Assembly: GCA_963662665.2 (NCBI GenBank)
Contig: CAXXJS010000025.1
Location: 64,001-128,000, forward strand
Source: Candidatus Latescibacterota bacterium
GTDB taxonomy: Bacteria; Latescibacterota; UBA2968; GCA-2709665
Direction of reading: 5' to 3'
DNA length: 64,000 nucleotides
Part shown: positions 892-50,849 of the stretch, one piece after another
Numbering within the stretch: the stretch's first letter is position 1
Layout of the letters: each line of letters begins with the position of its first letter
Notes under the pieces: generated by a model
Told to the model about the DNA's origin: nothing
The model's input: only the letters and a program-made list of their open reading frames with translations
The model's database searches: none
Position numbers and translations under genes: made by a program

Positions 892-893
892 GC

Positions 894-2969: not shown

Positions 2970-3005
2970 AAACTTATGCTCCTTCCCGGAATTGCCGCTC
3001 GCCGG

Positions 3006-5441: not shown

Positions 5442-5493
5442 CGTATCCTCCTTAGCGTTTATCGGCCCTCAATGAAATGAAGAATCGCATGGT

Positions 5494-5527
5494 GGCGGGT
5501 GCCCGGACGACCCTCCGGGCACCCGCC
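5494..5527. other. Strong intergenic hairpin (possible mRNA stabiliser or processing site)
   Basis: Perfect 14-bp inverted repeat GGCGGGTGCCCGGA/TCCGGGCACCCGCC between the TonB receptor and the CTD-protein gene; no U-tract. Confidence 0.55.
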
Positions 5528-5554
5528 CGTTCCTGTAGTGGATACCAGAACGGA

Positions 5555-8500
5555 TCAGAACTGCATTCTCAGACCCATTTCCGTGCGCCGGGGATGGCTG
5601 TAGAAGCTCCGGTCGGCCGTATCCCCGTACAAGAGGAAGTGAGAGTTGTCCGGGCGGGCCGTAAGCAACCCCCAGTTGGTCCAGTCGGTGGTATTGTACG
5701 AACTGTCGTCCTTCTGGTTGAACAGGTTCCGCACCTCCAGGAATAGGCTGACGTCGCCGCGCCCCTGACCGAACGGAAAGCGCTTCTCAATTGCGAAGTC
5801 GGTCCAGGTGCGAATGGGACGCAGACGTCGCTCGCGGCCCGAATTCGGCGGCGTGTACCAGAACGATCCGTTATTTTGCATTCGCCAGAGCAGGTTCACC
5901 CGCCAATTGGCAAGGAACTTGCTCCCGAACACCTTGAAATTGGGCCCATAGTCTCCTGGCGTGAGGAAGAGGAACTGCACGCTGCCCTGGTTGCGGATGT
6001 CGCCGCCGTCGGCGTTCAGGCCCGTCTGATAACCCCTGGCATAGATGTGGGTGTGGTCCAGTTCGAAGTCGTCCAGACCGATGAGCCCATACTCCCGGGC
6101 GGTCATCCGGGTCTGGTTGTAACCCCGGCCGCCGCGAGTACCGTCGATCCGTGCGAGGTTTCGGATAACTCTGTTCGCGGTGGCGCCGATCGTCCTGATC
6201 TGTTCCTGCGTGAGGGGCACCGGCACCTCCACGCCGTTCTCGACTCTGTATTCGTACCAGTATCGCCCGCTGGCGATGTACATGGAGTCGGGATACAGGA
6301 AGTTGAACCAGGCGTCGAAGTTGCCCCATCCGGCCTGCGCCCAGGTCATGTTGTACGCTACGTTGATGGCGAAGTTGTGGCTGAGCGGCTTCCGCACGGA
6401 GAGCTCCAGACCCCGCTGCTCTTCGAACCCGTTATTGTGCAGGATCCGGGCGTAGGGATGCACCCAGCCCGGTCTGTGGGGCGCGTAGAAGCGGACGTCG
6501 GAATGGTAGTGGTACTGGTCCTTCGCGCTCTTGTAATACAGCGCGATCGCGCCGGTGTAGTCCTGCACGAAGTTCCAGTCGGCGCCCACCTCCATCGACA
6601 CGGTCTTTTCAGGACGGATTTCGGTGGTGCCCTGTCCGCTGCGAATGGGATAAGATGGGCGCATAGCGTTGTAGCGCTCACCCGGGTCGATCGCGCCGTT
6701 CCCGTTCCAGTCCTGGTCAGGACCCGAAGTCCGCCAGTCCCCGTTGAAGTAATAATAGATATCCGGATACGCCAGGAACAGCCCGGCGAAATAGTGCATG
6801 GATGACCGCGCCGTTATGGGATGCGACACCCCCACCCGGGGGCTCAGGTTCTTGAATACGACCGGTTCCCGGTGGGGCGCATTCTGGAATCGCAGCGGCG
6901 AGTTGTACATGGGCGAGAACGCGTAAGCGCCCGAAGCCGGAAACTTGGATACCGGATCGAACAGATCCAGACGCAGGCCGGCATTGATGACCATGCCTTC
7001 GAATTCCATCTTGTCCTGCGCATATATCGCCAGGTGCTGGGGCTTGACAGGTTCTCCGATCACGCCCTGCGCCCCCGCGAACTCCAGCCGCCTGGCCTGC
7101 GCGCTCTCTCCGGTGTAGCGGGTAAGAAACATGCTGTACTTGATGAACTCGAAACCTGCCTTCACAAAATGCCCCTTCGTGATCTGGCTGGCCAGATCCA
7201 GCTTGACCTGATACCGCTTCCGGTCCGCAACCTGGTAATGCCGGACCTCCCGGTCCACGGCGAACCAACCGTCGGCATCTTTTCGTACGTCCGACGTTCT
7301 CTCCGCGATGTCGCTGGTGTCGTCGACGGTTGAATAGCGCGATATCCGGAGATCGTAGAACGTCCTGGGCGAGAGAGAATGGGTGATGGCCAGGTATTGC
7401 ATATTGTGGTTCGTGCTCATCTTGCCCGCCGCGCTCCAGTCCTCCTGCAGGAAGATGTTCCTCCCTCCGTCGAGCAGGCCGCGGATGACTCCCGCTGAGG
7501 TGCCCGCGGAACGTTCGTTCCGGTAGGCGTCCCGGTCGGTTCCGATAAACTTCCTGTTGCGCTCGAACAGGCCGCCGATTTTCATTTTTACGTTTTCGGA
7601 CGCGCGGACGGTGACGCTGTATGATCCCTGGTAGTTATTCAACGTAGGGACAAACCTCCCTATGTCGTCATAGTAGCCCCTCTCCGTCCCCGAAGGAAAG
7701 ATGGGCGCCAGACGTGCCGTCTTGCCCGAAACGATGAACGATGCGCTCTTCGAAAGCGGCCCCGAGATATTTCCCTCCACCTCGTGACCGGTGATTTCAT
7801 CGTAGTCCGCGCGCTGGTGGACGAGTCGGCCCGTGTCAGGGTCCCGCTCGTTCTGCCACTCGCCCTCGCCCCATTTCATTTTGTCGAGGTGCGACGGGCT
7901 CTCGTAGACGTTTGCGCCCCAGTGCTTCTGCCCCGGCGGCGTCCGCCGGTACTCTCCCCATCCGTGGAAGTTCTGGCTGCCGTCTTTCGTAATAATGCTG
8001 ACGACGCCTGCCTGAGCGTTGCCGTACTCGGCGTTCATTCCGCCCGTAACCACGGAAATCTCCTGGACGGTCGACCGGTTGATGCTCTTCCAGTTGTGTG
8101 ATCCGGCGCCGTCACTGTTCACGATTTTCACGCCGTCCACGTAGTAGGCCACGTCTCCGCCCGTGCGGCTTCGCCATTCTCCCGGCCGGTTGCTTCCCCG
8201 CATGCGGTCGGAACCATCGAGGTGAACACCCGGCTGCAGGGTGATCATTTCGCTGGTCGTGCGCACGATTGGGAGCTGCTCGATCTCATCGGCGCCGACG
8301 ATGTATTTGCTGAAGGTCTTGTCGACCTCGACGGGTGGACGTTCCGCCTTCACGACCATCTCCCCGAGTTCAAGCGTCGCTTCTTCGAGCCTGAAATCGA
8401 CCTCGGCGGTCACGTCGGCCTGCACCCGCACGTCTGTCATTGACTCGGTCTGGTATCCGATCAGAGACGCCTTCAGGGTGTAAATTCCGGGATCGGCGCG

Positions 8501-8704
8501 CAGGATCACGTAGAACCCTTCCGCGTCGGCGGTGGACCCGAGATTCTGTCCCTCGATGACCACGTTGGCGCCGGGCAGCGCTTCTCCCTGTCGATCCAGG
8601 ACCTTCCCTACGATCTTTCCGGTCGTACCGGCCCAAGCGCTCCCGCTCAGCGCAAGTGCCGTGCAGAGGGAAAGAAATCCGAAAAACAAAATGCACTTCT
8701 TCAT
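5555..8704 (-). CDS. TonB-dependent receptor with N-terminal carboxypeptidase-regulatory-like domain
   Basis: Start ATG 8704 after GGAGG. GKIVGKV..LPGANV..G.Y.I domain, plug motif YYVDG..VVTGGMNAEYGNAQAGVV, C-terminal NLFN and GLRMQF. Confidence 0.92.
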   Translation of the reverse strand: MKKCILFFGFLSLCTALALSGSAWAGTTGKIVGKVLDRQGEALPGANVVIEGQNLGSTADAEGFYVILRADPGIYTLKASLIGYQTESMTDVRVQADVTAEVDFRLEEATLELGEMVVKAERPPVEVDKTFSKYIVGADEIEQLPIVRTTSEMITLQPGVHLDGSDRMRGSNRPGEWRSRTGGDVAYYVDGVKIVNSDGAGSHNWKSINRSTVQEISVVTGGMNAEYGNAQAGVVSIITKDGSQNFHGWGEYRRTPPGQKHWGANVYESPSHLDKMKWGEGEWQNERDPDTGRLVHQRADYDEITGHEVEGNISGPLSKSASFIVSGKTARLAPIFPSGTERGYYDDIGRFVPTLNNYQGSYSVTVRASENVKMKIGGLFERNRKFIGTDRDAYRNERSAGTSAGVIRGLLDGGRNIFLQEDWSAAGKMSTNHNMQYLAITHSLSPRTFYDLRISRYSTVDDTSDIAERTSDVRKDADGWFAVDREVRHYQVADRKRYQVKLDLASQITKGHFVKAGFEFIKYSMFLTRYTGESAQARRLEFAGAQGVIGEPVKPQHLAIYAQDKMEFEGMVINAGLRLDLFDPVSKFPASGAYAFSPMYNSPLRFQNAPHREPVVFKNLSPRVGVSHPITARSSMHYFAGLFLAYPDIYYYFNGDWRTSGPDQDWNGNGAIDPGERYNAMRPSYPIRSGQGTTEIRPEKTVSMEVGADWNFVQDYTGAIALYYKSAKDQYHYHSDVRFYAPHRPGWVHPYARILHNNGFEEQRGLELSVRKPLSHNFAINVAYNMTWAQAGWGNFDAWFNFLYPDSMYIASGRYWYEYRVENGVEVPVPLTQEQIRTIGATANRVIRNLARIDGTRGGRGYNQTRMTAREYGLIGLDDFELDHTHIYARGYQTGLNADGGDIRNQGSVQFLFLTPGDYGPNFKVFGSKFLANWRVNLLWRMQNNGSFWYTPPNSGRERRLRPIRTWTDFAIEKRFPFGQGRGDVSLFLEVRNLFNQKDDSSYNTTDWTNWGLLTARPDNSHFLLYGDTADRSFYSHPRRTEMGLRMQF

Positions 8705-8805
8705 TGCAAAACCTCCGTTTAGTTGGTCTTCCTGCCTGACTTCGGCCCTGCCTGCCCGATCGGATTGTCCTTCCTCCTTTCCTTCACCCGGGCACGCGAG
8801 ACGCG

Positions 8806-9552
8806 CTACTTTCTTCCTGTTTCGTAGAATTTGACGGCAACCTCCAGATCCAGCATCTGCAGCAGCGGCATAACGCCCTTGATGCCCCATGCCTCACGCG
8901 GCCCGAGCGTTCCGACCAGGAAATTGTGCTGCGCCCGGAAATCCAGTGAAAAGTTGCTCGACATGAACCGCTCAACGCCGAACCCGATATGGCCCCCGAG
9001 CGCCCACCGGCTTTCAACAACGGGCTCCAGAACGAGGCTAGGGTCCAGCGCGTTCATTTCGGAGCCCTCGACGGCGATGCCCTTCTGACCGGGATAAATC
9101 AGGCCGCTCACGCGGTTGCTGTAACTGTGAAACCCACCACCGGCGACGACGTACGGGGACGTCATCTGCTGCGAGAAAAGGCGTGATTTGTCACCGAGCC
9201 GGAAAATCACGTTGCACAGCACACTATTGATCCGCATGCTGGCATCGGAGTCCGGGCTTGCGTAGTCCTGCGAGTCTTCGTTCCAGGTGAACGTCTGACT
9301 TTCGATCTTGCCGTCGTTGTACTCCAGCCGGTGATATTCGAACTCCAGAGCGGTGTTGACGTCACGGTTGTAAACCACGCTGCCGCCCCACCGTACAGCC
9401 TGGCTGTACCAGTTGGCCCGCAGCCCCATTACGGGCAGGTTGTAGCCCAACAGCATCCGCCCGCCGATCCGGTCATACTCACGCGCGCCGGAATCCGGTG
9501 CAAGAAGCAACACAAGAAGCCCGACAACAGCGGTACATCTCCATGTGCCCAT
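8806..9552 (-). CDS. Outer-membrane beta-barrel domain protein
   Basis: Signal peptide; amphipathic strands (PYVVAGGG, GHIGFGVE, LEVAVKFY); RBS AAGGAGG. Confidence 0.65.
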   Translation of the reverse strand: MGTWRCTAVVGLLVLLLAPDSGAREYDRIGGRMLLGYNLPVMGLRANWYSQAVRWGGSVVYNRDVNTALEFEYHRLEYNDGKIESQTFTWNEDSQDYASPDSDASMRINSVLCNVIFRLGDKSRLFSQQMTSPYVVAGGGFHSYSNRVSGLIYPGQKGIAVEGSEMNALDPSLVLEPVVESRWALGGHIGFGVERFMSSNFSLDFRAQHNFLVGTLGPREAWGIKGVMPLLQMLDLEVAVKFYETGRK

Positions 9553-9731
9553 AGACTGCCCTCCTTATGATGGATTGGGTCGTGCGGGCGCCACCGACAA
9601 TTCCCGCGGGACAAGGGTCATTTATTGCGGGTACGGCAAGACGGCGCCCCTCCCACAGAGGAAGCCCTCGCGATGCCGTTTCGATACCCGCCAATGAGGC
9701 GGATATGCACAAAATGCAGGTTATGTAAGGA

Positions 9732-9761
9732 ATGATAACACCCTTTAGTAGATTTTGTCAA
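9732..9761 (-). promoter_or_regulatory. Sigma70-type promoter of the TonB/PorV operon
   Basis: Minus-strand TTGACA-18 nt-TATCAT with an extended -10 TGn. Confidence 0.7.
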
Positions 9762-10075
9762 GGAAAAAACGGGGTGTTTCTTTAGAATTCGGCATGCCGG
9801 GGGGCCCCACGGGCGCGGCGGTGTCGTGCACACCCTCTGCCAGAGGAAAATCTGATGGATGTATCGCTGAGGAGGGCGCTCCGATACCTTACAGGTCAGG
9901 CCTAGTGTGGCGTCGCCAAGCTGAGCCGTGACCAAGCTGTATGGTTCTACAATGCACGGCCGAAACATACGGGAAATGAGTCGGTGACACGCGCGTGTGC
10001 GACGCTATGCCGAATAGGCCGGCATCCGTTAGCGCGGCAGACAGAGCGAATTCGCAGACATTGTCAGACCATGCG

Positions 10076-10105
10076 AAAAACCCCACCGGTCCGGGGCGGG
10101 GTTTT
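10076..10105 (-). terminator. Probable intrinsic terminator
   Basis: AAAACCCC...GGGGTTTT stem with a T-run, downstream of the cohesin gene. Confidence 0.5.
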
Positions 10106-10365
10106 ACGCTGTTCTCAATCACAGGTCTATATTCTATCGCTTATCTGCTAATCTTTCACCGCTTTTGGGCAGGTTCGCCTTCATCCCATTTGATATGTCC
10201 AACCTGCCTCTTGCCGGTGCCGGTTCGTCCAAGCGGACTCGCAAATCAACGAAAACCTCACCTCTGAGGCGATGTTCCAAGACGTCTGTGGATCGCCAGG
10301 ACGCGTGCCGAGAGCAGGAGCAGACGTTCCGGCGCACCTGTCAGATGGTGATGCCCGCTGCACGC

Positions 10366-11175
10366 CTATTTCAACAGCAACATCCGCTGGGTCGCCGAAA
10401 AGTTGCCCGCCTGTATCCGATAGAGATAGACCCCGCTGGCAACGCGCCGACCCAACTCATCCGTGCCGTCCCAGGTCGTCGCGAAAAACCCTGCTTCCAT
10501 CTTTTCGTTTACCAAAACACGCACCTCCTGACCCAGCACACTGTAAATCACCAGCCGTACCCTGCCTGCCTCCGGAAGCCGATATCCGATTATCGTCGAC
10601 GGATTGAACGGATTCGGCGCGTTCCGATCCAGACCATAAGCATCGGGAAGTGGTCTTAAATCGCCGATTTCGACGTGCGCCAGCGGTTCGACCGCGCCAT
10701 CCAGGCCGACCAGCACGCTCTCCTCAACCTGAAAGTCCGACGCGGACGGCGTAACTCCCGCCCTGAATACGAGGTCCAACAGATCGCCCTCACCGCCTGC
10801 GCCCTTGCCATCGAACTTCACGGCGCCGATTTCCAATCTGCCAGGCGTCCGGTTCGTCCTCATAGAGAGCGGCTTTTGTTCGGTGCTCGAGGATAGCAAG
10901 TTGCCCGCCAAATCCATGGCTTCCAGAAATTCATACTTTTCCGCATCGTATTCCAGCAGAAAGCCGTATCCCTTCGTTTCAGTGACCTGAGAGAGGGAGA
11001 CGCGCACTCTCAGAATCTCCTTTTCTGCGGCCGGATCGTGCACCCGCGCAAGTGTCAGTTTTGCAGAGGGGTTCCGACCTCCTATAATGGTGAGGCCCTC
11101 GGTCATCTCTCCCGCCAATGCCGGTCCTGTCCATATGAGCGCCGAGCAGATGGTTGATATGAAAAGTCTCCTCAT
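10366..11175 (-). CDS. Cohesin-like domain protein with FlgD-Ig/T9SS type A sorting domain
   Basis: Signal peptide. VRVSL..KGYGFLLEYD..GEGDLLDLVF (cohesin-like). LDRNAPNPFNPST.IGY.LP..VIYSVLGQEV..WDG.D..G..VASGVYLY..RMLLLK (CTD). Confidence 0.8.
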   Translation of the reverse strand: MRRLFISTICSALIWTGPALAGEMTEGLTIIGGRNPSAKLTLARVHDPAAEKEILRVRVSLSQVTETKGYGFLLEYDAEKYEFLEAMDLAGNLLSSSTEQKPLSMRTNRTPGRLEIGAVKFDGKGAGGEGDLLDLVFRAGVTPSASDFQVEESVLVGLDGAVEPLAHVEIGDLRPLPDAYGLDRNAPNPFNPSTIIGYRLPEAGRVRLVIYSVLGQEVRVLVNEKMEAGFFATTWDGTDELGRRVASGVYLYRIQAGNFSATQRMLLLK

Positions 11176-11344
11176 GGCTGCCTCCCTGTATGTTGTCACC
11201 CGTGTGGTGACGTGTACTGCCGACAATTGAATCAGAGCACGCTCCAACGGGAATGGATAAGGATGTGGCGATGAATCGCTTCACCAACGTTGTGTGAAAT
11301 CAGGTCGTAAACTGATCTCACCAACGTAATGGACGCGTGTAGCC

Positions 11345-14300
11345 TCATCCTCCATCACCCCCCGAATCACCGCCCCCCTGCGATGACGCGTCATTCTGAA
11401 TATATCCGCTCAAGATGACCAGATCCGCGAAATTGATGGTCCCGTCGCCGTTCAGGTCCATCCTGCGGTCGAACCCGGCATCCGACGAACTCAGGCCGGA
11501 TTTTTCGTTGAGCATAGCTGCGTCGGCTGCATTGCGCGTGCCGTCGCCGTTGAAGTCGCCCGGACCGCGAGCGGTTATATCGAACGCTTCCGAGTCTGTC
11601 CGATTGTCCGCGTCGCTAACGGTGACTGTCGCGGAATGGGTTCCACGCTCCGTAATTTCACCTTCAATCAGTCCGCTCGCCGAAATCGACAGGCTCGATC
11701 CGGACGGGAGGGTCGGCGTTACGGACAAGCTATAGCGATAGGGCGAACGACCGCCAGAGACTGAAACCTGATGCGTAAACGGCACTGACACAATTTCTGT
11801 TATATCCGAAATGCTTGCAATTGTTACAGGTTCGGCCACGCTGAAGGTGAATGACGTCGATTTTGAAGTGTTATTGACGTCGGTCACTGTCACGCTGATC
11901 GTGAAACTACTGGTGGCCGTGGGTGTGCCTGAAATTCTCCCGCTCGACGAAATAGAAAGACCCGATCCCGACGACGGATTTGACGAAAGAGAATAAGTGT
12001 ATGGCGAACAACCGCCACTCTTCCCTACCGGAAACGAACTGATGGCCCTGCCCTTCGTTCCCGACTTATTCGATATTGACGAGATCGCCAGCGTCGAAGC
12101 TTCCCCCACGGTGATCGTGAAGTCCTCTTCGTCGGTACTCTCGTTCCCGTCGGTCACCTTTACCACAACCTTCGGACTGCTGCAGGCAGCCGAACTCGGT
12201 ACCGTGCCGGTGATGCTGCCCCCGGAGGAGACGCTGATCCACGACGGGCCGCTCTCCTTCGAAAACGTCTTCGTACCACACCCACCCGACGCACTGGCCG
12301 TGATCGAGATTTCATCATCCACTGCCTTCGTCACGTCTGCGATCGCTGCGACCTCCAGCGTCGAAGCTTCCCCCACGATGATCTTGAAGTCCTCGTTGTC
12401 GGTAATCCCGTTCCCGTCGGTCACCTTTACCACAACCTTCGGACTGCTGCAGGCAGCCGAACTCGGTACCGTGCCGGTGATGCTGCCCCCGGAGGAGACG
12501 CTGATCCACGACGGGCCGCTCTCCTTCGAAAACGTCTTCGTACCACACCCACCCGACGCACTGGCCGTGATCGAGATTTCATCATCCACCGCAGCCGTCA
12601 CGTCAGAGATCGATGCGATCGTCAGCGTCGAAGCTGCCCCCACTTTAATCTGGAAGTCCTCTTTGTCGGTAATCCCGTTCCCGTCGGTCACCTTTACCAC
12701 AACCTTCGGACTGCTGCAGACAGCCGAATTCGGTACCGTGCCGGTGATGCTGCCCCCGGAGGAGACGCTGATCCACGACGGGCCGCTCTCCTTCGAAAAC
12801 GTCTTCGTACCACACCCACCCGACGCACTGGCCGTGATCGAGATTCCATCATCCACCGCAGCCGTCACGTCAGAGATCGATGCGATCGTCAGCGTCGAAG
12901 CTGCCCCCACTTTAATCTGGAAGTCCTCTTTGTCGGTAATCCCGTTCCCGTCGGTCACCTTTACCACAACCTTCGGACTGCTGCAAACAGCCGTACTCGG
13001 TACCGTGCCGGTGATGCTGCCCCCGGAGGAGACGCTGATCCACGACGGGCCGCTCTCCTTCGAAAACGTCTTCGTACCACACCCACCCGACGCACTGGCC
13101 GTGATCGAGATTTCATCATCCACCGCAGCCGTCACGTCAGAGATCGATGCGATCGTCAGCGTCGAAGCTGCCCCCACTTTAATCTGGAAGTCCTCTTCGT
13201 CGGTATTCCCGTTCCCGTCGGTCACCTCTACCACAACCTTCGGACTGCTGCAGGCAGCCGAACTCGGTACCGTACCGGTGATGCTGCCGCCGGAGGAGAC
13301 GCTGATCCACGACGGTCCGCTCTTCTTCGAAAACGTCTTCGTACCACACCCACCCGACGCACTGGCCGTGATCGAGATTTCATCATCCACCGCAGCCGTC
13401 ACGTCAGAGATCGATGCGATCGTCAGCGTCGAAGCTGCCCTCACTAAAATCTTGAACTCTTCATCGTCCGTATTCCCGTTCCCGTCGGTCACCTTTACCA
13501 CAATCTTCGGACTGCTGCATCTTGCCGAACTTGGTACCGTGCCGGTGATGCTGCCCCCTGAGGCGACGCTGATCCACGACGGGCCGCTCTTCTTCGAAAA
13601 CGTCTTCGTGCCGCACCCACCCGACGCACTGGCCGTGATCGAGATTTCATCATCCACCGCAGCCGTCACGTCAGAGATCGATGCGATCGTCAGCGTCGCA
13701 CCCGGAACGGTGATCCTGAACTCTTCGTCGTCGGTATTCCCGTTCGCGTCGGTCACCTTTACCACCACCTTGGGACTATTGCATCTTGCCGAACTCGACA
13801 CTGTACCGGTAATGCTGCCCCCTGAGGAAACGCTGATCCACGAAGGGCCGCTCTTCTTCGAAAACGTCTTCGTACCGCACCCACCCGACGCACTGGCCGT
13901 GATTGAGATTGACGAGCCCGCCGCCTTCGTCACGTCAGAGATCGATGCGATCGTCAGCGTCGGGCAGGATACCGTAGGCGTGGCCTTCACCACTGATGAA
14001 TCACCGTGCGCGGATGTCGCTTTGGCGCGCAACTCGAAGGTGTATTTCCTATCGTTCGTCAGGTTCATCACCGCATGGCTCGTCGTCGTGGCGTCGCTGC
14101 CCGAGATATCGCCCCAGGTCGGCTGCGACGGGCGGGTGCCGCTGTAATGGACAAGCTGGTATACGGTAATGGCGGCATCGCCGGGGTCATCCCAATTCAG
14201 CGTCACCTTCCCGTCGCCTCCCGTCCCCCGCAGGTTGGCAGGGGCAGCGGGGAACGGCGTTGCCGTCACCTCTGACGAATCGCCCAGGGCGTCCGTCGCT

Positions 14301-17300
14301 TTCGCGCGCAGCTTGAACGTATACGCCGTCCCGTTGGTGAGACCCTCAACCGTGTGTTCCGTGGTGTTTTTGTCCGTATCGGAAACGTCGCTCCAGTCCT
14401 GAACCACGGTGGTCCCATGGCCATACTTGAGTTGGTACGCGGTAATGCCGTCGTCGCCGGGGTTATTCCAGGTCAGCGCCACCTGATTGACGCCCGCCGC
14501 GGCCTGCAGGTTGGCAGGCGCAGCGGGGTACGGCGTTGCCGTCACCTCCGACGAATCGCCCAGGGCGTCCGTCGCTTTCGCGCGCAGCTTGAACGTATAC
14601 GCCGTCCCGTTGGTGAGACCCTCAACCGTGTGTTCCGTGGTGTTCTTGTTCGTACCGGAAACGTCGCTCCAGTCCTGAACTACGGTGGTCCCATGGCCAT
14701 ACTTGAGTTGATATACGGTAATGCCCGCGTCGCCGGGGTTGTTCCAGGTCAGCGCCACCTGATTGACGCCCGCCGCGGCCTGCAGGTTGGCAGGGGCCGC
14801 AGGGTACGGCGTTGCCGTCACCTCCGACGAATCGCCGGGGGCGTCCGTTGCTTTCGCACGCAGCTTGAACGTATACGCCGTCCCGTTGGCGAGACCTTCA
14901 ACCGTGTGCTCCGTGGTGTTTTGGTCCGTATCGGAAATATCGCTCCAGTCCTGAACCAGGGTGGTCCCATGGCCATACTTGAGTTGATATACGGTGATGC
15001 CGTCGTCGGCCGGGTCGTCCCATTCCAGCGTCACCTGATTGACGCCCGCCGTGGCCAGGAGGTTGGCAGGCGCCGCGGGAAACGGCGTTGCCGACGCACT
15101 CGCCGACGGACCGGGGCCCGCCGCGTTCACGGCCCGCACCTGGAAGGTATGGAGGGCGCCGCTTGTCAATCCCTCCGCCGTATAACTCGTCGTACTGAAG
15201 TCGCTGCCGCCAATTTCCGTCCAGTCCGGATCCCACTCGGCGCCCGTCCGATATCGGTATTCGTATCCCGTGATCGTGGCGTCGTTCGGATTATCCCACG
15301 ACAGCGTCACCGTCCCGTCACCTGCTGACCCCGCCAGGTTGCCCGGCGCAGCGGGCGGCGGCGCGGGCGTGGCCGTCACGCCGGCCAACGTGCCGTTGCC
15401 ATTCGCGTTGATCGCGCGCACCTCGAACGTATACTCCGTCTCGTTGGTCAGTCCCGTCAAACGGTGGCTCGTCGTATTCGCGCCGCTGCCCCCAATGGCG
15501 GTCCAGTCCGGGTTCCACGTCATGCCCGTCCGGTATCGGTACTGGTAGCCCGTGATCGAATTGTCGTTCGCGTCATCCCACGACAACGTCACGGAGCCGT
15601 CGCCCACCAGCGCGCTCAGGTTTTCCGGCGCCGACGGCACTGCCGGCGCATCGATGGCGGCCCAGTCCGACCACGGACTCATATCCGTGCCGCGCCACGC
15701 CTTCACGCGATACACGTATCTTTCTCCCCCTTCCACGGTGCCATCCATATACGTCGTCACGTCCGCGCCCGTCGTGCCTATCTCGTGAAAAACCCCGGGA
15801 CCGTCATTCCTGGGCCATCGACGCAGGACCTCATAGCCAGTAACGAGTTCGGCATCGGCCTCCGGCGCGTCCCACGACAGCGTCACCGAACCGTCCACCA
15901 GCGCGACGCTGAGATTCCTCGGCGGCAACGCGAACGGCGTCGACGCCACAGTGGACGCCGCGCCGTCTCCCGCCGGGTTCTTCGCACGCAGCTGGATGGT
16001 ATATCGGGTCCCGTTAACCAGCCCCGTCAATCGGTGGCTCGTCGTCGTCGCGTCGCTCGCGTCGACGTCCGTCCAGTCCGGGTCCCACTCGGCCCCCGTC
16101 CGGTATCGGTACTGGTAGCCCGTGATCGTGGCGTCATCCGGGTCGTCCCACCGTAACGTCACCCGCCGGTGACCGGCCGTCGTACTCAGGTGGACAGGCG
16201 CCAGCGGCGGCGGCGCAGGCGTCGCCGTCACGCTGGACGCCGCGCCGCCGCCCGCCGCGTTGGTCGCGCGCACCTCGAAAATGTGCGCCGTCCCGTTCGT
16301 CAGGCCGGTCAGGCGGTGGCTCGCCGTACCGGCGTCGCTGCCATCGACGTCCGTCCAATCCGGGTCCCACTCGGCCCCCGTCCGGTATCGGTACTGGTAG
16401 CCCTCGATCGTGGCGTCATTCGGATCATCCCACGACAGCGTCACCGTTCCGTCGCCCACCGACGCACTCAGATTGACCGGGGCCAACGGCGGCGGCACGG
16501 GAATCGCCGCCACGGTGGCCGCCACGCCCGCGCCCGCCGTGTTCCTCGCACGTAACTGGAAGGTATACAGGGTCCCGTTCGTCAGACCCGTCGCCGTATG
16601 GCTCGTCAACGTGAAATCACTTCCCGCAATTTCGCTCCATTCAACCCCCGTCCAATCCAAAGGGTCCGACGCAACGCCTTCGATGAAACGAAACTCGTAG
16701 ACCGTGATCGTGACGTCGTTCTGATCCACCCACGACAGCGTCACCGTTCCGTCACCCACCGACACACTCTGGATGATGGGCACTGCCGGCGGTGGTATGG
16801 GCGTCGCCGTCACGCTGGCCGTCGCGCCCGCGCCCCTCACGTTTCTTGCGCGCAACTCGAACGTATACTCCGTACCGTTAGTCAAATTGGACACCCAGAG
16901 GAATGTCGTACTGGCGTCGCTGTTTTCAATCTCCCGCCACATAACCCCCGTCCAATCCGGAGGGTCCGTCCCGCCGCCTTCGGCGAAACGGAGTTCGTAG
17001 ACCGTGATCGTGGCGTCACTCGGATCGTCCCACGAAAGCGACACGGACCTGTTACCCGCCACAGCGGTCAGGTTGGCAGCACCCGCCGGCGCCGACGGCA
17101 CGTCAACGAGGACAAAGTTCGAATAACCGCTCAGCCTGTTGCCGCGACGCGCTTTCACCCGATATACAAAGGTCTCTCCCTCCAGGATGAAGGCATCCAC
17201 GTACGACGTCTCGCTGGCACCGGTCGTGGCTATTGCGTGAAAACCACCGACCGGATCCACGCTCGAGCGCCGCATGACCTGATACCCTGTAACCTTTGAC

Positions 17301-17560
17301 GCGTTCGCCGTCGGCGCGCTCCAGCTCAGCGACACCCCGGCCTCACCCAGCGTGGCCGTCAGGTCCGAAGGTGCACCCGAGCCACGCGCAGGGTCGGGCG
17401 CCCCCATCAGCAGAAGGACCGGCAGTACAAAACGCAGCGAAAAGCGACGGCGCGACCGGCAAACAACAACACCACGCAACGCATACAGCCACCACGATAC
17501 CTCGACGGGCGAAACAAACGGGCGAAAGCGCATCGTTGACCTCCACGTAATCGTTGTCAT
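11345..17560 (-). CDS. Giant surface protein: about 12 FN3 domains, about 9 Ig-like (He_PIG-type) domains and a C-terminal dockerin-like domain
   Basis: Repeated P.AP.NL..V.L.W..YQ..GL.NGT.Y.F.VRA units; Ig repeats; paired Ca-loop motifs GDFNGDG..NAAD and DLNGDGTINFADL. Exact start uncertain. Confidence 0.88.
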   Translation of the reverse strand: MTTITWRSTMRFRPFVSPVEVSWWLYALRGVVVCRSRRRFSLRFVLPVLLLMGAPDPARGSGAPSDLTATLGEAGVSLSWSAPTANASKVTGYQVMRRSSVDPVGGFHAIATTGASETSYVDAFILEGETFVYRVKARRGNRLSGYSNFVLVDVPSAPAGAANLTAVAGNRSVSLSWDDPSDATITVYELRFAEGGGTDPPDWTGVMWREIENSDASTTFLWVSNLTNGTEYTFELRARNVRGAGATASVTATPIPPPAVPIIQSVSVGDGTVTLSWVDQNDVTITVYEFRFIEGVASDPLDWTGVEWSEIAGSDFTLTSHTATGLTNGTLYTFQLRARNTAGAGVAATVAAIPVPPPLAPVNLSASVGDGTVTLSWDDPNDATIEGYQYRYRTGAEWDPDWTDVDGSDAGTASHRLTGLTNGTAHIFEVRATNAAGGGAASSVTATPAPPPLAPVHLSTTAGHRRVTLRWDDPDDATITGYQYRYRTGAEWDPDWTDVDASDATTTSHRLTGLVNGTRYTIQLRAKNPAGDGAASTVASTPFALPPRNLSVALVDGSVTLSWDAPEADAELVTGYEVLRRWPRNDGPGVFHEIGTTGADVTTYMDGTVEGGERYVYRVKAWRGTDMSPWSDWAAIDAPAVPSAPENLSALVGDGSVTLSWDDANDNSITGYQYRYRTGMTWNPDWTAIGGSGANTTSHRLTGLTNETEYTFEVRAINANGNGTLAGVTATPAPPPAAPGNLAGSAGDGTVTLSWDNPNDATITGYEYRYRTGAEWDPDWTEIGGSDFSTTSYTAEGLTSGALHTFQVRAVNAAGPGPSASASATPFPAAPANLLATAGVNQVTLEWDDPADDGITVYQLKYGHGTTLVQDWSDISDTDQNTTEHTVEGLANGTAYTFKLRAKATDAPGDSSEVTATPYPAAPANLQAAAGVNQVALTWNNPGDAGITVYQLKYGHGTTVVQDWSDVSGTNKNTTEHTVEGLTNGTAYTFKLRAKATDALGDSSEVTATPYPAAPANLQAAAGVNQVALTWNNPGDDGITAYQLKYGHGTTVVQDWSDVSDTDKNTTEHTVEGLTNGTAYTFKLRAKATDALGDSSEVTATPFPAAPANLRGTGGDGKVTLNWDDPGDAAITVYQLVHYSGTRPSQPTWGDISGSDATTTSHAVMNLTNDRKYTFELRAKATSAHGDSSVVKATPTVSCPTLTIASISDVTKAAGSSISITASASGGCGTKTFSKKSGPSWISVSSGGSITGTVSSSARCNSPKVVVKVTDANGNTDDEEFRITVPGATLTIASISDVTAAVDDEISITASASGGCGTKTFSKKSGPSWISVASGGSITGTVPSSARCSSPKIVVKVTDGNGNTDDEEFKILVRAASTLTIASISDVTAAVDDEISITASASGGCGTKTFSKKSGPSWISVSSGGSITGTVPSSAACSSPKVVVEVTDGNGNTDEEDFQIKVGAASTLTIASISDVTAAVDDEISITASASGGCGTKTFSKESGPSWISVSSGGSITGTVPSTAVCSSPKVVVKVTDGNGITDKEDFQIKVGAASTLTIASISDVTAAVDDGISITASASGGCGTKTFSKESGPSWISVSSGGSITGTVPNSAVCSSPKVVVKVTDGNGITDKEDFQIKVGAASTLTIASISDVTAAVDDEISITASASGGCGTKTFSKESGPSWISVSSGGSITGTVPSSAACSSPKVVVKVTDGNGITDNEDFKIIVGEASTLEVAAIADVTKAVDDEISITASASGGCGTKTFSKESGPSWISVSSGGSITGTVPSSAACSSPKVVVKVTDGNESTDEEDFTITVGEASTLAISSISNKSGTKGRAISSFPVGKSGGCSPYTYSLSSNPSSGSGLSISSSGRISGTPTATSSFTISVTVTDVNNTSKSTSFTFSVAEPVTIASISDITEIVSVPFTHQVSVSGGRSPYRYSLSVTPTLPSGSSLSISASGLIEGEITERGTHSATVTVSDADNRTDSEAFDITARGPGDFNGDGTRNAADAAMLNEKSGLSSSDAGFDRRMDLNGDGTINFADLVILSGYIQNDASSQGGGDSGGDGG
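12095..13960 (-). repeat. Seven near-identical ~267-bp (89-aa) intragenic tandem repeats
   Basis: GTACCACACCCACCCGACGCACTGGCCGTG recurs at 12273, 12540 and onward with 267-nt period. Confidence 0.95.
14260..15085 (-). repeat. Three near-identical 276-bp (92-aa) FN3 tandem repeats
   Basis: YQLKYGHGTT.VQDWSD..TTEHTVEGL.NGTAYTFKLRAKATDA occurs three times. Confidence 0.9.
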
Positions 17561-18131
17561 ACGCCTGACGTCAGCGTAACCGGCGGGATTATCCAGCTTT
17601 TTTCATTTCATGAGGCATCACTCTTGTTAATATACAACATTAATTGTGAATTCGTGCTGAATTATTGAGCCATATCGATGATTTTTTGATGAATTACGGC
17701 GATTTTCGCGAATTCAAACCAGCGAGGGATCACACACTTCAGCCGTTCGATGTATTTACGCCTCCACTCGGTGCCGACTATGGAACGGGGAGCACAGGGC
17801 GGCGCGTATGGCGTTGTTAGACCCGGACGGCCGGCAAGGAATCGTTCACGGGTGGAGGCCCTGTTACGCTGTAAAGACCGGTCCCGATTCAGGCGCCGCC
17901 CTCCACTCCGTACACAAAGGGACTTGCAATCCCTCCCGGTATGGTTTAGACTTGGGATGAGGGGGCTTGTGTAGCAGTGGCTCTTTGAGATTTGAACGAT
18001 ATGCGAGCGGAAGTTCGCTGTGCGGCCGGCGAATCGCAGGACCTACTTCTGGCGGGAAATGCCTGCGATTCAGGGTATGCTGCCGGCTGAGCCGTTCGAA
18101 TTCATCCCTGATCCGGAAATGGGTTTCCCCA

Positions 18132-20231
18132 ATGGTCGATCCCGCGGCGCCACGGTTGATTCTGTCTGACTGCGAACTGGATGAACTGTGCAATCGCAGC
18201 GTTTCGTCGCACGCCCGGTTCTTCAGAGCAATGGTCGAAGACCTGAAAGGCCGGTTGCCTGTCGATCCGCCCGATTCGCTCTGGGACCTGGAAGAGCCGG
18301 CGTACAGCGATATCCTCGAGATCTGTTTTTCGCTGGTGGTGAACTGCGGCATCGCCTACCATCTCACACGGGACAAACGTTGGAGCGGCCTTGCCGAACG
18401 CTGGCTGACGCGGTGGGTCGAGGTCGGCGCAGCCCACGACGAGCAGGTCAAGTCGTCCTACCTGGTGGCCTTTCACGTCATGGCACTGGCCTATGGCCTC
18501 GATCTGTTTGGAAGGGTCCTACCGGATTCGCTCGTACGTCGGTCGGTGGAAGTGTTGCGGGTCGAGGCCGGACGAATGGCTCGGCACATGGGTACCGGCG
18601 AGGCCGGCTGGAGCCGGCGATACCATTACCACGACTGCTGGGTGCCGGTCTTCGGCGCCGGCGTCGGCTGTCTGGCTCTGTTACCCTACGCTCCCGAAGC
18701 CGCGGCCTGGTTATCCACGGTGGAACGAGAGGTCGACTGCATCGTCTCCATCCAGGGTGGGGACGGTGCGTGGAATGAAGGTGTGGCTCCGTTGAATTAC
18801 GCGTTGGGGCCGATGCTGTTCTACCTGGAGGGCAGAAAACGGGTCTTCGGCGAGCGTGCGTCTAAAATTCCATGGCTGAAGGCATTGTCCCGCTGGCGGG
18901 CGTACCACCTTCTTCCCGACGAGAGCTACGTATTTCTGGACGATTCGACGCCCAGCGGCCGGTACCACGGCGAGACCGGCGGGGTTGTCGCTTTTCAACT
19001 GTACAAACTCGCGTCCGAGTTCAACGACGGCCTGGCGCAGTGGCAGGCGGAACGGGAATCCGCCCGTTCGTTCCCGAAGGATTACCACGACTGCGGCTGG
19101 AGCTTCCTGTGGTACGATCCCGGCGTTAAGGCGGAACCTCCGGACGGATTGCCGGCCGCCGCCGCCTTCCCGTCGCTGGGTCAGTTTTTCTCACGCACGG
19201 GGTTTGACAAGAACGCGTCGGTACTCAGCTTCGAGTGTACGGTTCCCGGCGGACCGCTGGCGCAGTCCCGGCTGGATTCGGGGCTTCCGATACAGACCAT
19301 AACGCAGAATAAACACGCACACTATAGAGACCGCGCTGCTTTCACGTACTTTGTAAACGGGCACTATTTCTTCAGGCCGTCCGGTTACTTTCGATTCGAC
19401 GCCGCTATGAAGAATACCCTCACGTTCGACGGGGTCGGACAGTCGGTCGAACCCAACTCCGGCGGCGAGATGGAGGGCGTGTATTGCGGCGGGAACAACG
19501 TGTATTCGGCCGCACGATGCCAGGCGGCGTGCGCGTATCCGGACGTGCCGGGTCTGACCTCCTTTGAACGGACCGTCTTGCACGCGAGGGACTGTCACGC
19601 CGCGTTCGTACTGGACCGCGTCCGGTTCTCCGGCCGAGAACCGCGTTGTGTGGAAGCCCATTTTCACGTCGGCCATGAAGTTGAAACCCGGATCGGACCG
19701 GACGGTTCGCTGCTACTGCGGACACCATCCGGACAGGCCTGCCGGTTCTATCAGGCATCTTCGCGGGCGGCGATATTCGAACGGGTGCCGCAACCGGTCG
19801 ACCCCTATTGGAGAGATTACCTGTCCGGCTACGACATCCCGCCGGAAGACCTGGAGGCGATGGATCAGGTGGACCTCCGCTTCCGGTTCGCGATGGCCGG
19901 CGAGACGTCGGTCGACGTCCTGTGGGCGATTCTGCCTCACGGCGGGGACTGCGATGTCGGACAACAGGCCGATGATTCGATGATCTCCTTCTGGTACGGG
20001 GTCCCGGGCGGTACGCCGCAACTGGTCCTGGCGCCTCCCGCGGAGGAAGTCGGCAGACCTGCCCGCGGACCGGTGCTGCCGCAGCGGCCGGAGCGGATTT
20101 TCGTGCTGGGTGGGTTGCCCGGAGGCCGGATCAGACTCGCGCTGGAGCGCCTCGACGGAGATCGGTGGGGGGCGGTACTTGGGGAAGGCCAGGACTATGA
20201 AGTGACGGCGGCCGGGACAGCTTGCCTGTAG
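18132..20231 (+). CDS. Heparinase II/III-like (DUF4962-type) lyase-fold protein
   Basis: Helical N-terminus, DGAWNEG..Y motif, FLWYDP, G.FFSRTG, H.Y.D...F, NTLTFDG.GQ and F.R.V beta-sandwich. Start set at ATG 18132. Confidence 0.65.
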   Translation: MVDPAAPRLILSDCELDELCNRSVSSHARFFRAMVEDLKGRLPVDPPDSLWDLEEPAYSDILEICFSLVVNCGIAYHLTRDKRWSGLAERWLTRWVEVGAAHDEQVKSSYLVAFHVMALAYGLDLFGRVLPDSLVRRSVEVLRVEAGRMARHMGTGEAGWSRRYHYHDCWVPVFGAGVGCLALLPYAPEAAAWLSTVEREVDCIVSIQGGDGAWNEGVAPLNYALGPMLFYLEGRKRVFGERASKIPWLKALSRWRAYHLLPDESYVFLDDSTPSGRYHGETGGVVAFQLYKLASEFNDGLAQWQAERESARSFPKDYHDCGWSFLWYDPGVKAEPPDGLPAAAAFPSLGQFFSRTGFDKNASVLSFECTVPGGPLAQSRLDSGLPIQTITQNKHAHYRDRAAFTYFVNGHYFFRPSGYFRFDAAMKNTLTFDGVGQSVEPNSGGEMEGVYCGGNNVYSAARCQAACAYPDVPGLTSFERTVLHARDCHAAFVLDRVRFSGREPRCVEAHFHVGHEVETRIGPDGSLLLRTPSGQACRFYQASSRAAIFERVPQPVDPYWRDYLSGYDIPPEDLEAMDQVDLRFRFAMAGETSVDVLWAILPHGGDCDVGQQADDSMISFWYGVPGGTPQLVLAPPAEEVGRPARGPVLPQRPERIFVLGGLPGGRIRLALERLDGDRWGAVLGEGQDYEVTAAGTACL

Positions 20232-20879: not shown

Positions 20880-20953
20880 CCGGTTAACGGACGGGGCGCT
20901 CACTGACGCTGATATTGGAAATTGCATCGCTCATCTTCATGGAGACTCCCCGG

Positions 20954-21829
20954 ATGACAAGGAAACCGTATTCGCCCGAAGGAAAAACGATCGTCACGAA
21001 AAACGACATTATCGAAGGCCTTCGCGACCTGGGGGTGAAAACAGGGGACGCGGTGTTTTTCCACAATTCCCTCAGCAGCATGGGATACGTGGACGGCGGC
21101 GCCGAAACCGTGATCGACGCGTTTCTGGAGGCCGTAGGTCCCCGGGGCACCATCGCGGTGAATTCCTGCCATTTCAACGGATGGCACTGCGAATATGCCC
21201 GCACCGCCGGTACCCCGGCGTTCGACGTGCGCCGCTCACCGTCCAGGATGGGCAGGATCACCGAGGTGTTTCGTCACCGTCCCGAAGCGGTGCGGTGTCT
21301 CGATTCCAGCAATCCGATGTGTGCGATCGGGCATCAGGCGGAGTACCTCGCGGAAGGCGCGGTTCGCTGTTTCACGCCGTGCGGGCGGGATACGGCCTGG
21401 GGAAAGCTGGGCGAGATCGACGCTCACTACATGTTCCTGGGAACGGGATGGACCAGTTGCACCATGATGCACGCCTGCGAGGAATACGGGCACGCGCCCT
21501 ACGCGCTGATGGACGAGCCCTCCCGCCTGGAGGTGGCCGACGAACAGGGCCGCATCCACGTGCACGTCCAGAAGGTGCATACGCCGAACGTGCCCAGGGA
21601 TTACTTCCTGATGGAACCCGAGATGCAGAAGCAGGGCCTCGTTCAGTACGGAAAGATTGGCGATGCGAAAGTGACCATAATGAACGCCAGGGAACTGATC
21701 GAGGCAGGCACCCGGTGTATCGTGGAAGATCCCGGCTTTCTGCTGAAGGACCGCAGTTTCCTCAAGCAGTGCCGGGATCATCAGAGGGGGCTTATTCCAC
21801 CCGGATACAAGGGCATTTCCGACGTGTAG
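20954..21829 (+). CDS. AAC(3)/YokD-family N-acetyltransferase
   Basis: LGVKTGDAVFFHNSLSSMGYVDGG, MGRITEVFR, CTMMHACE. Start chosen after GGAG. Confidence 0.85.
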   Translation: MTRKPYSPEGKTIVTKNDIIEGLRDLGVKTGDAVFFHNSLSSMGYVDGGAETVIDAFLEAVGPRGTIAVNSCHFNGWHCEYARTAGTPAFDVRRSPSRMGRITEVFRHRPEAVRCLDSSNPMCAIGHQAEYLAEGAVRCFTPCGRDTAWGKLGEIDAHYMFLGTGWTSCTMMHACEEYGHAPYALMDEPSRLEVADEQGRIHVHVQKVHTPNVPRDYFLMEPEMQKQGLVQYGKIGDAKVTIMNARELIEAGTRCIVEDPGFLLKDRSFLKQCRDHQRGLIPPGYKGISDV

Positions 21830-21854: not shown

Positions 21855-21947
21855 ATGCAGATCCTGCCGGACCTCTATCTCGCGGACGGGTTTGCGAACG
21901 CGCGACGGCAGTTTATTACCCGGGAGGATCTGCGGAAACGATGTTGA
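21855..21947 (+). pseudogene. 30-codon ORF with strong RBS; probable gene remnant or leader peptide
   Basis: AAGGAGG precedes ATG 21855; translates MQILPDLYLADGFANARRQFITREDLRKRC; overlaps the start of the next gene. Confidence 0.4.
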
Positions 21948-50321: not shown

Positions 50322-50849
50322 GTGAACAGACACAGGCCACTACCCGTTCGCTTTTTTCGTACGACGACAGGACGTGAACCGGTCAGAGCCTGGCTGCGCG
50401 GTCTGGACCGCGAATCCAGAAAGATCATTGGTGCCGACGTCAAGACCGTTCAATTCGGGCGGCCTCTTGGAATGCCGCTGGTCCGAAAACTCGAAGGCGA
50501 TCTTTGGGAGGTCCGCTGCAGACTGCCCGATTCAATTGCCCGAGTCGTCTTTACGCTTTACGGTGGCACGATGAGAAAACATATCGGCAGCTATTTCGAT
50601 GAGTTCCTCAAGGAAGAGGGTCTCCTCGGTGAATCAGAAGCGACGGCAGCGAAACGCGTGATTGCGTTTCAGTTGAGCCAGTTCATGAAGGAACACAAGC
50701 TGTCCAAATCCGAGATGGCGAGGCGCATTCAAACCAGCCGGTCGGCGCTGGACCGTCTGTTAGATGCTTCGAATTCCTCGGTAACCCTGCGGACATTGGA
50801 CCGCGCTGCACAAGTTCTCGGCCGACAACTCCGCATCGCGTTGATATAA
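50322..50849 (+). CDS. In-frame fusion of a truncated RelE/Gp49-like toxin and an XRE antitoxin
   Basis: Residues 1-83: FFRT..G.EPVR.WL..GMPLVRKL...LWEVR. From ATG 50571: HIGS.FDEFL.EEG..MA....TSRS.LDRLLD..TL.TL..AA. Confidence 0.75.
   Translation: MNRHRPLPVRFFRTTTGREPVRAWLRGLDRESRKIIGADVKTVQFGRPLGMPLVRKLEGDLWEVRCRLPDSIARVVFTLYGGTMRKHIGSYFDEFLKEEGLLGESEATAAKRVIAFQLSQFMKEHKLSKSEMARRIQTSRSALDRLLDASNSSVTLRTLDRAAQVLGRQLRIALI

Follow-up and report, generated by a model that had tools for sequence, protein, structure and literature searches.

The 64,000-nucleotide stretch of DNA examined here (the window; positions 64,001 to 128,000 of contig CAXXJS010000025.1, from a Candidatus Latescibacterota bacterium) contains a gene for a 2071-aa surface protein, P0001, with a leader, 12 fn3 domains, nine He_PIG domains, and a dockerin. 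The He_PIG part of this protein, which we refer to as the stalk protein, probably carries a chain of eight disulfides. In the proposed chain, a linker cysteine in the motif SCPT is bonded to the GGC cysteine of domain 1 (SC-GGC1), and the AxC cysteine of each domain n is then bonded to the GGC cysteine of domain n+1. This appeared to be the only pairing scheme that matched both the predicted fold of the domains and the cysteine patterns of relatives.

Cysteine register of the He_PIG domains

When the 2071-aa protein was scanned with Pfam, the fn3 family matched 12 stretches (E = 2e-107), and He_PIG (PF05345, "putative Ig domain") matched nine (E = 8.6e-56). The He_PIG score was 186.8 bits against a cut-off of 24. 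The protein has 17 cysteines: 16 are located between residues 1199 and 1851, and one (C34) is located in the leader. No cysteine was found in residues 35 to 1198, which cover all 12 fn3 domains. In the case of C34, the residue is N-terminal to the hydrophobic core of the predicted signal peptide for all three candidate start codons. C34 would thus be part of the signal peptide, and the mature protein would carry 16 cysteines.

The original prediction, which was made from the sequence of the window alone, described seven 89-aa repeats with two cysteines each (GGC and AxC). The complete list of cysteines bore this out, as did Tandem Repeats Finder, which identified an array at 12083-13962 with a period of 267 nt, 7.1 copies, and 93% matches (i.e., seven repeats of about 89 aa). 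The extra cysteine that was placed ahead of repeat 1 (SCPT) is C1199, and the cysteine that was placed in the GGCSPY motif of domain 8 is C1851. The sequence also agreed with the statements that domain 8 lacks an AxC cysteine and that domain 9 has GGR in place of GGC. All 16 cysteines that were assigned to positions 11990-13970 are present; C34, which was not mentioned, lies outside this region.

The GGC and AxC cysteines are separated by a constant 32 residues in each repeat of the window. A linker cysteine about 29 residues before the B-C loop (GGC) cysteine is present only in domain 1, and the linker position is Gly or Ala in domains 2-8. Because the seven copies represent one recently amplified unit, they were counted as one observation and not as seven.

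Predicted fold of the tandem domains

We used AlphaFold2 to model residues 1192-1463, which include the linker cysteine and domains 1-3. The input alignment was made of seven stretches of the window, which overlap and span three domains each. The model had a mean predicted local distance difference test score (pLDDT) of 92.0 and a predicted template modeling score (pTM) of 0.64, and DSSP assigned strands A, A', B, C, D, E, F, and G in all three modeled domains. The He_PIG fold (PDB 4nzj) is described in the Rib-domain paper as an immunoglobulin (Ig) sandwich with sheets B-D-E and A'-G-F-C (PMC6936399), and the predicted model appeared to have this layout. Specifically, the N terminus and the B-C, D-E, and F-G loops are predicted to lie at one end of the sandwich, and the A-B, C-D, and E-F loops and the C terminus are predicted to lie at the other.

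In all three modeled domains, the GGC cysteine was located 1-3 residues past strand B, in the B-C loop, and the AxC cysteine was located 4 residues ahead of strand F, in the E-F loop past a one-turn helix. Because strands C, D, and E lie between the two cysteines, an odd number of crossings places them at opposite ends of the domain, a full domain length apart. Thus, the model would not permit a bond between the GGC and AxC cysteines of one domain. The AxC cysteine of domain n and the GGC cysteine of domain n+1 are instead predicted to front the same junction, and the modeled linker from the G strand of one domain to the A strand of the next was only 3 residues. If the strands follow a simple register, the donor (E-F loop) cysteine and the linker position would project beyond the F-G hairpin at the same end.

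In a fold search, the structures nearest to the model were fragments of cadherin ectodomains and a tandem repeat from an RTX adhesin. Sequence searches of solved structures were also performed, and the hits were unusable as tandem templates: the di-repeat matched only 6s5w_A (E = 0.052), and a nine-repeat profile matched two phage decoration proteins (E = 0.0045 and 0.0073).

Partners of the B-C loop cysteine among relatives

A hidden Markov model (HMM) was built from the nine He_PIG domains in the window and run on homologues. The sample consisted of 313 homologues, which were collected in three word-index searches and one exhaustive search, and three open reading frames (ORFs) from the genome loci described below. 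Without the stalk protein itself, the sample contained 315 proteins and 4641 He_PIG domains. We coded the cysteines as L (linker), A (GGC position), or E (E-F loop).

In 260 relatives with 4159 domains, the cysteine hot spots were the linker (675), the F-G loop (892), and the GGC position (100). C1199 is at HMM position 1, which is the linker hot spot of the family, and the GGC cysteines fall on a second hot spot. Judging from these positions, the placement of the stalk cysteines is likely to be beyond chance. The two most common cysteine-bearing patterns in the 4641 domains were L + F-G (918 domains) and L + A (120 domains).

As for the partner of the A cysteine, 168 domains had a cysteine at this position, and 140 of them had an L about 29 residues earlier in their own domain, as in SC-GGC1. 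The other 28 domains had no L, and in 23 of these cases the preceding domain carried E. The 23 acceptors were distributed among four proteins: the protein of locus L001 (19), P0013 (2), P0233 (1), and P0188 (1). Both kinds of partner were never found for the same A cysteine (0/168).

The donor side gave a similar picture. E was present in 48 domains of the relatives, 21 of which also carried A, and an acceptor domain (A without L) came next in all 21 cases. Hence, a GGC + AxC domain without an acceptor after it was not found among the 315 relatives. For 10 of the 48 E domains, the sole candidate partner was a cysteine 23-44 residues downstream, ahead of the next strand A, and 9 of the 48 had no assignable partner. 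It appears that the E-F loop cysteine pairs toward the C terminus in other relatives, too.

We also compared acceptors with the background outside the three Latescibacterota-type proteins. A donor was present in the previous domain for 2 of 5 acceptors without L, compared to 18 of 3928 domains in the background (2x2 table 2 / 3 / 18 / 3910; Fisher one-sided p = 2.4e-4). In addition, 28 of 30 donor domains had an E-F segment of 13 residues. In the 4408 other domains, the mode was 10 residues, and 9% of them had a segment of at least 13 residues.

A second cross-junction pattern was found in the same sample. Eight of the nine three-cysteine L + A + F-G domains follow a three-cysteine domain that has an extra cysteine in the A-B loop. 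Since each of two such neighboring domains has three cysteines, one bond has to cross the junction. Adjacent domains with odd numbers of cysteines were observed 60 times, compared to 33.5 +/- 4.2 in 1000 shuffles (maximum 52).

An extra A-B loop cysteine at HMM position 17, followed by a domain with linker, B-C loop, and F-G loop cysteines, was seen in residues 1943-2107 of the L003 protein and in P0005, P0034, P0051, P0030, P0274, and P0267. The P0157 and P0191 arrays were considered as further serial chains and were not used; their domains are shorter, align poorly to the HMM, and show no end asymmetry.

Serial arrays in relatives and their origin

A scan of genome contigs yielded three loci from Candidatus Latescibacterota metagenome-assembled genomes (L001, L002, and L003). 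L001 encodes a 2255-aa fn3-He_PIG-dockerin protein, which we consider a positional orthologue of the stalk protein because the downstream genes are 68% identical (188/277). The 56 cysteines of the orthologue were all accounted for. Domain 1 has L + A + E, domains 2-19 have A + E, domain 20 has only A, and domains 21 and 22 have none; eight of domains 2-19 hold a further cysteine pair at positions 6 and 79. The paralogues encoded by L002 and L003 have ordinary L + A pairs.

P0013 is the closest database protein to the modeled region (57% identity to residues 1192-1463 and 67% to residues 1286-1463). Its domains 1-3 carry L + A + E, then A + E, and then A (plus an 8/81 pair), and they are followed by ordinary domains. 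Thus, there are arrays with 2, 7, and 19 cross-junction pairs, and each array starts with a linker cysteine and ends with an acceptor-only domain. In domains 4 and 5 of P0013 (residues 1168-1332), there is a linker cysteine and a CxC in the F-G loop, which puts three cysteines at one end of each domain.

Two further, unrelated proteins have a single candidate junction. P0233 has 14 He_PIG domains according to the HMM repeat profile (13 stretches in Pfam) and no dockerin. Only two cysteines occur in its He_PIG region; domain 13 has one in the E-F loop, and domain 14 has the other in the B-C loop, with a separation of 60 residues. Of the four cysteines in P0188, domain 2 holds three, namely one at the end of strand C and two in a CxxC of the E-F loop; the fourth belongs to the B-C loop of domain 3.

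A FastTree analysis of 102 domains (88 columns, Shimodaira-Hasegawa-like supports) placed all 28 A + E domains and domain 20 of the orthologue in one clade (support of 0.94), beside the L + A domains. Domain 8 of the stalk protein grouped (support of 0.81) with three L + A domains of the paralogues and with domain 21 of the orthologue, which has neither a partner nor an A cysteine. Domain 3 of P0013 grouped (support of 0.94) with two domains that lack the A cysteine. It seems that the acceptor domains differ in origin.

Given these patterns, we lean toward the idea that He_PIG stalks gained cross-junction staples several times. Such staples would run from the E-F loop to the next B-C loop in this lineage, P0233, and P0188, and from the A-B loop to the lower loops of the next domain in the paralogues. 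In this lineage the staples would be serial, yielding a laddered rod of 8 domains in the stalk protein and of 20 domains in the orthologue, and they might serve as a metal-free substitute for a cadherin-like Ca2+ clamp.

Proposed mechanism and competing explanations

In the proposed scheme, the first bond (C1199-C1228) would be the ordinary clamp of the family within domain 1. The seven cross-junction bonds would be 1260-1316, 1348-1405, 1437-1494, 1526-1583, 1615-1672, 1704-1761, and 1793-1851. In each of the seven, the donor would be the E-F loop cysteine at the C-terminal end of domain n, and the acceptor would be the B-C loop cysteine at the N-terminal end of domain n+1. During evolution, the partner of the B-C loop cysteine may have shifted out of the linker and into the preceding domain's lengthened E-F loop, which would turn a within-domain bond into a cross-junction staple. 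Since each 89-aa repeat brings one donor and one acceptor cysteine, every cysteine would stay paired when repeats are gained or lost.

With these bonds in place, the seven junctions of domains 1-8 would be covalently held and would be expected to bend and twist less, and a cut in a linker would leave the stalk unsevered. Because disulfide-closed loops would take up 428 of the 652 residues that separate C1199 from C1851, extension under load should be limited. The junction between domains 8 and 9 and the junction between domain 9 and the dockerin would be unstapled. The outcome might be a rigid, protease- or force-resistant rod.

The original prediction had proposed the same pairing (SC-GGC1, AxC1-GGC2 ... 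AxC7-GGC8), and the predicted topology and the cysteine patterns of relatives both supported it. Structure prediction of the tandem repeats put the GGC and AxC cysteines of one domain at opposite ends in the model, and the test for cysteine covariation in homologues indicated that the partner of the B-C loop cysteine was in most cases either its own linker cysteine or the preceding E-F loop cysteine, and never both. The argument that no cysteine should be orphaned held only in part: the scheme does pair all 16 cysteines, but the argument is weak alone because odd cysteines occur in relatives, such as those in domains 4 and 5 of P0013.

Several points weigh against the chain of staples or its repeated origin. 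The fold model was built from seven rows that all came from the window, and three of the five models had a pLDDT above 86 and two had a pLDDT below 50. The positions of cysteines in distant proteins depend on the HMM alignment and might be off by a few residues. Of the 168 A-cysteine domains, 5 had neither kind of partner; one of these follows a domain with an extra A-B loop cysteine, one is truncated, one has a vicinal CC, and the remaining two also have cysteines at positions 8, 17, and 81. Domains 4 and 5 of P0013 each leave one cysteine without an obvious partner. The single A + E clade implies that the long arrays of the stalk protein, the orthologue, and P0013 reflect one origin and a few boundary events, and the independent cases outside the clade are only the two single junctions in P0233 and P0188. 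A mean-field coupling analysis of 1486 adjacent domain pairs (effective number of 764) yielded nothing usable and missed even the known cysteine pairs; its output was swamped by gap columns and by same-column signals from the duplicated repeats. Finally, a Pfam scan of 40 ORFs in the window found no thiol-disulfide oxidoreductase, a result with little bearing on the genome outside the window.

The last point would also suit the main rival explanation, which is that the cysteines are placed as in the staple scheme and are mostly free thiols in vivo, either because the habitat is reducing or because the bonds are partial or reversible. The odd cysteines in relatives fit this explanation as well. 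We nevertheless consider it unlikely, since the cysteines are nearly confined to a few paired positions in the 4641 domains, which is a signature of structural disulfides in exported proteins. In addition, the 12 fn3 domains of the same protein are free of cysteines, and donor and acceptor cysteines come and go together. A different arrangement of bonds, in which GGC and AxC are joined inside each repeat and C1199 and C1851 are orphaned, is the default expectation for two cysteines per Ig-like repeat, and the 32-residue spacing is constant in the window. This arrangement seems highly improbable, because three strands separate the two cysteines in the predicted sandwich and place them at opposite ends. 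It would also leave C1199 unpaired even though linker plus GGC is the most common GGC pairing in the family, it does not explain why a first-domain linker cysteine and a last-domain GGC cysteine are kept in the stalk protein, the orthologue, and P0013, and it would leave both cysteines of P0233 without a partner. Moreover, the within-domain GGC-AxC spacing varies (32 or 35 residues), whereas the cross-junction spacing is steady at 56-58 residues.

Because the two cysteines are predicted to be in exposed loops at the ends of the domains, they could in principle form bonds between molecules and link stalks into bundles or a surface mesh. We view this as very unlikely. The lone pairs at one junction in P0233 and P0188 are better suited to a bond within the chain, as are the boundary conditions in the first and last domains, and the 3-residue linker in the model sets the donor and acceptor loops of the same chain side by side. 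The least probable explanation is that the seven-copy array is an assembly artifact and that its register is meaningless. Near-identical 267-nt repeats are indeed hard to assemble, but the copies differ from one another (93% matches) and are in frame throughout, the register argument is independent of the copy number, and relatives with 2 and 19 junctions have the same ends. Thus, we favor the chain of within-chain, cross-junction disulfides.

Domain layout, anchoring, and gene neighborhood

The positions of the stalk-protein gene, its domains and cysteines, and the gene next to it are listed in Table 1.

Table 1. Positions of the stalk-protein gene, its domains and cysteines, and the neighboring downstream gene in the window
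Feature	Position	Strand	Remarks
Stalk-protein gene (P0001), 2071 aa	11345..17560	minus	Single ORF; leader, 12 fn3, 9 He_PIG, dockerin
Leader with predicted signal peptide, residues 1-60	17381..17560	minus	Contains C34
fn3 array, residues about 62-1196	13973..17377	minus	Without Cys; Pfam
He_PIG domains 1-7, residues 1197-1819	12104..13972	minus	Two Cys per domain: GGC (B-C loop) and AxC (E-F loop)
He_PIG domain 8, residues 1820-1908	11837..12103	minus	GGC Cys only (C1851); short E-F loop; no linker Cys
He_PIG domain 9, residues 1909-1997	11570..11836	minus	Cys-free, GGR
Type I dockerin, residues 2000-2054	11399..11563	minus	Dockerin_1 (Pfam), score of 33.1 bits, cut-off of 22.9
C1199 (SCPT), linker Cys	13964-13966 (codon)	minus	Lies 3 residues ahead of strand A in He_PIG domain 1
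GGC Cys of domains 1-7	Residues 1228, 1316, 1405, 1494, 1583, 1672, 1761		
AxC Cys of domains 1-7	Residues 1260, 1348, 1437, 1526, 1615, 1704, 1793		ARC, ARC, AAC, AVC, AVC, AAC, AAC
C1851 (GGCSPY), domain 8	12008-12010 (codon)	minus	
Downstream 293-aa gene	10366..11247	minus	Possible cohesin-like N-terminal domain; type IX secretion system (T9SS) type A sorting domain

The candidate starts of the leader are M1, M10, and a TTG at codon 28, and they are followed by a basic stretch and then by the hydrophobic FVLPVLLLMGA. The leader is predicted to contain a signal peptide (RRRFSLRFVLPVLLLMGA). The fn3 part contains two tandem arrays at the DNA level, one at 14160-15093 (period of 276, 3.4 copies, 89% matches) and one at 15940-16592 (period of 282, 2.3 copies, 76% matches). 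The orthologue has 2 fn3 stretches but 22 He_PIG stretches, which indicates that the fn3 and He_PIG arrays grow and shrink independently.

Only fn3-type, He_PIG-type, and dockerin matches were found by Pfam in the 2071-aa protein, and none of them represents an adhesive or ligand-binding tip domain. The stalk protein also had no match to a T9SS sorting domain (TIGR04183 or PF18962). No isopeptide- or ester-bonded stalk family was among its Pfam matches; cross-link residue triads were not looked for. In domains 1-7 (12104-13972, minus strand), we noted an acidic A-B loop (AAVDDE) and an F-G loop (DGNGxTD) that would face each other across the junction and that we take to resemble Ca2+-binding loops. 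The orthologue does not keep these loops and has PASPGGS and DAQGATAD instead. Plus-strand ORFs over the stalk gene (11997-14147, 716 aa, and others, including ORFs of 324 aa and 230 aa) repeat along with it and were taken as by-products of the repeats and the base composition, not as genes. An Rfam scan of the window gave no hits.

The dockerin is followed by a C-terminal tail rich in Gly, Ser, and Asp. It is kept in the proteins of all three genome loci, and the motifs DFNGDG and DLNGDG of its duplicated Ca2+-binding loop are conserved across the four proteins. Its presence suggests that the stalk is anchored to a cohesin. The product of the downstream 293-aa gene is a possible candidate for this anchor. 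It matched TIGR04183 with 33.3 bits (cut-off of 23), and 44% of the members of its nearest Atlas cluster (score of 0.90) have a Cohesin domain, which we treat as a lead only. In the case of its orthologue at L001, Pfam Cohesin matched with an E value of 0.0016 and 19.1 bits, below the cut-off of 24.1. When residues 40-205 of the 293-aa protein were scanned alone, there was no Pfam match, and an AlphaFold model made from two sequences had a pLDDT of 45.8, which was not good enough for use in a fold search.

The genes downstream of the stalk gene (1989-11247, minus strand) look like a surface or outer-membrane set. They include a gene for a 1111-aa, TonB-dependent-receptor-like protein with CarboxypepD_reg and Plug domains, and ORFs of 248 aa and 811 aa without a Pfam match; a weak PorV-like match was below the cut-off. 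The cluster is flanked by an FGE-sulfatase-family gene (34-1119, minus strand, E = 4.3e-59) and by a gene with a weak heparinase II/III-like match (17967-20231, plus strand, 22.4 bits, below the cut-off of 24). These flanking genes hint at the use of sulfated polysaccharides.

Farther along the window, two adjacent Antibiotic_NAT (aminoglycoside 3-N-acetyltransferase) genes are located at 20915-21829 and 21941-23497 on the plus strand (E = 5.4e-47 and 7e-51), with a GNAT acetyltransferase gene directly upstream of them. A 175-aa ORF at 50322-50849 (plus strand) matched both Gp49-like (DUF891) and Cro/C1-type helix-turn-helix families and may be a fused or mis-called toxin-antitoxin-like pair.

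Implications and comparison with known systems

The covalent cross-links known from bacterial stalks are within-domain devices (isopeptide, ester, and disulfide bonds), and stiffness at the junctions between stalk domains is attributed to short linkers or to Ca2+. If the staples form, serial junction disulfides would be a third route to a stiff, cleavage-tolerant surface fiber. The stiffening would be free of Ca2+ and compatible with rapid changes in repeat number. The scheme also provides a rule for finding such stalks in databases, namely that a domain with a donor cysteine (E-F or A-B loop) should precede an acceptor domain without a linker cysteine, and it suggests a compact design for engineered rigid protein rods. 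In force experiments, it predicts contour-length steps per domain of about one-third of the unstapled steps until the bonds are reduced (224 versus 652 residues).

One of the closest known arrangements is the ordinary He_PIG pair within the same family, in which a linker cysteine would be bonded to a B-C or F-G loop cysteine of the same domain. Domain 1 of the stalk protein has such a pair of linker and B-C loop cysteines, and the acceptor in ordinary linker-to-B-C pairs is at the same B-C loop position as in the stalk protein. In contrast, domains 2-8 have no linker cysteine; the proposed partner is in the longer E-F loop of the preceding domain, and the bond would cross the junction. Our literature search found no paper on ordinary He_PIG cysteine pairs or on cross-junction disulfides in arrays of He_PIG or other bacterial stalk domains, and this is weak evidence of novelty, as the coverage omits most subscription journals.

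In cadherins, the Ca2+ ions at each junction are described as being held by the DRE motif of repeat n, the DXNDN motif of the linker, and the DXD motif of repeat n+1 (PMC5115871). The DRE motif probably lies ahead of strand F and the DXD motif past strand B, which would bring the E-F loop of repeat n and the B-C loop of repeat n+1 together in that related fold. The staple would hold a junction of this same type together, and the fold search placed the model near cadherin ectodomains. However, the linkers of the stalk (VGAAST, VRAAST, or VPGAT) have no acidic Ca2+ motifs, the DXNDN/DRE/DXD set of motifs was not found in the stalk protein, and Pfam Cadherin was not among its matches at E <= 0.01. 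A covalent bond would take the place of metal bridging here, and stiffness would therefore be independent of Ca2+ if the bonds form.

In the giant adhesin of the Gram-positive bacterium Mobiluncus mulieris, covalent cross-links in the tandem Ig-like stalk domains are thought to resist force and proteases; the cross-links described for this adhesin are all within one domain, and the interdomain linker is described as flexible (PMC10619420). Compared to the isopeptide, ester, and disulfide bonds of such Gram-positive stalks, the bond proposed here would span the junction, its chemistry would be that of a disulfide, and the host is of the Latescibacterota type. Periscope proteins and the stalks of fibrillar adhesins are described as variable-length arrays of near-identical repeats (PMC8201768, PMC8286594). 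The stalk protein is like them in its near-identical tandem DNA repeats and in the variable number of junctions among relatives (2, 7, and 19), but the relatives are different organisms and not strains, a tip domain was not recognized by Pfam, and anchoring would be via a dockerin and not via a wall or membrane anchor. A natural disulfide between consecutive Ig domains of one chain is known for the V and C domains of the rabbit kappa light chain (work cited in PMC5382564). That vertebrate protein has two domains and one such bond, whereas the stalk would have a serial chain of such bonds along its repeat array.

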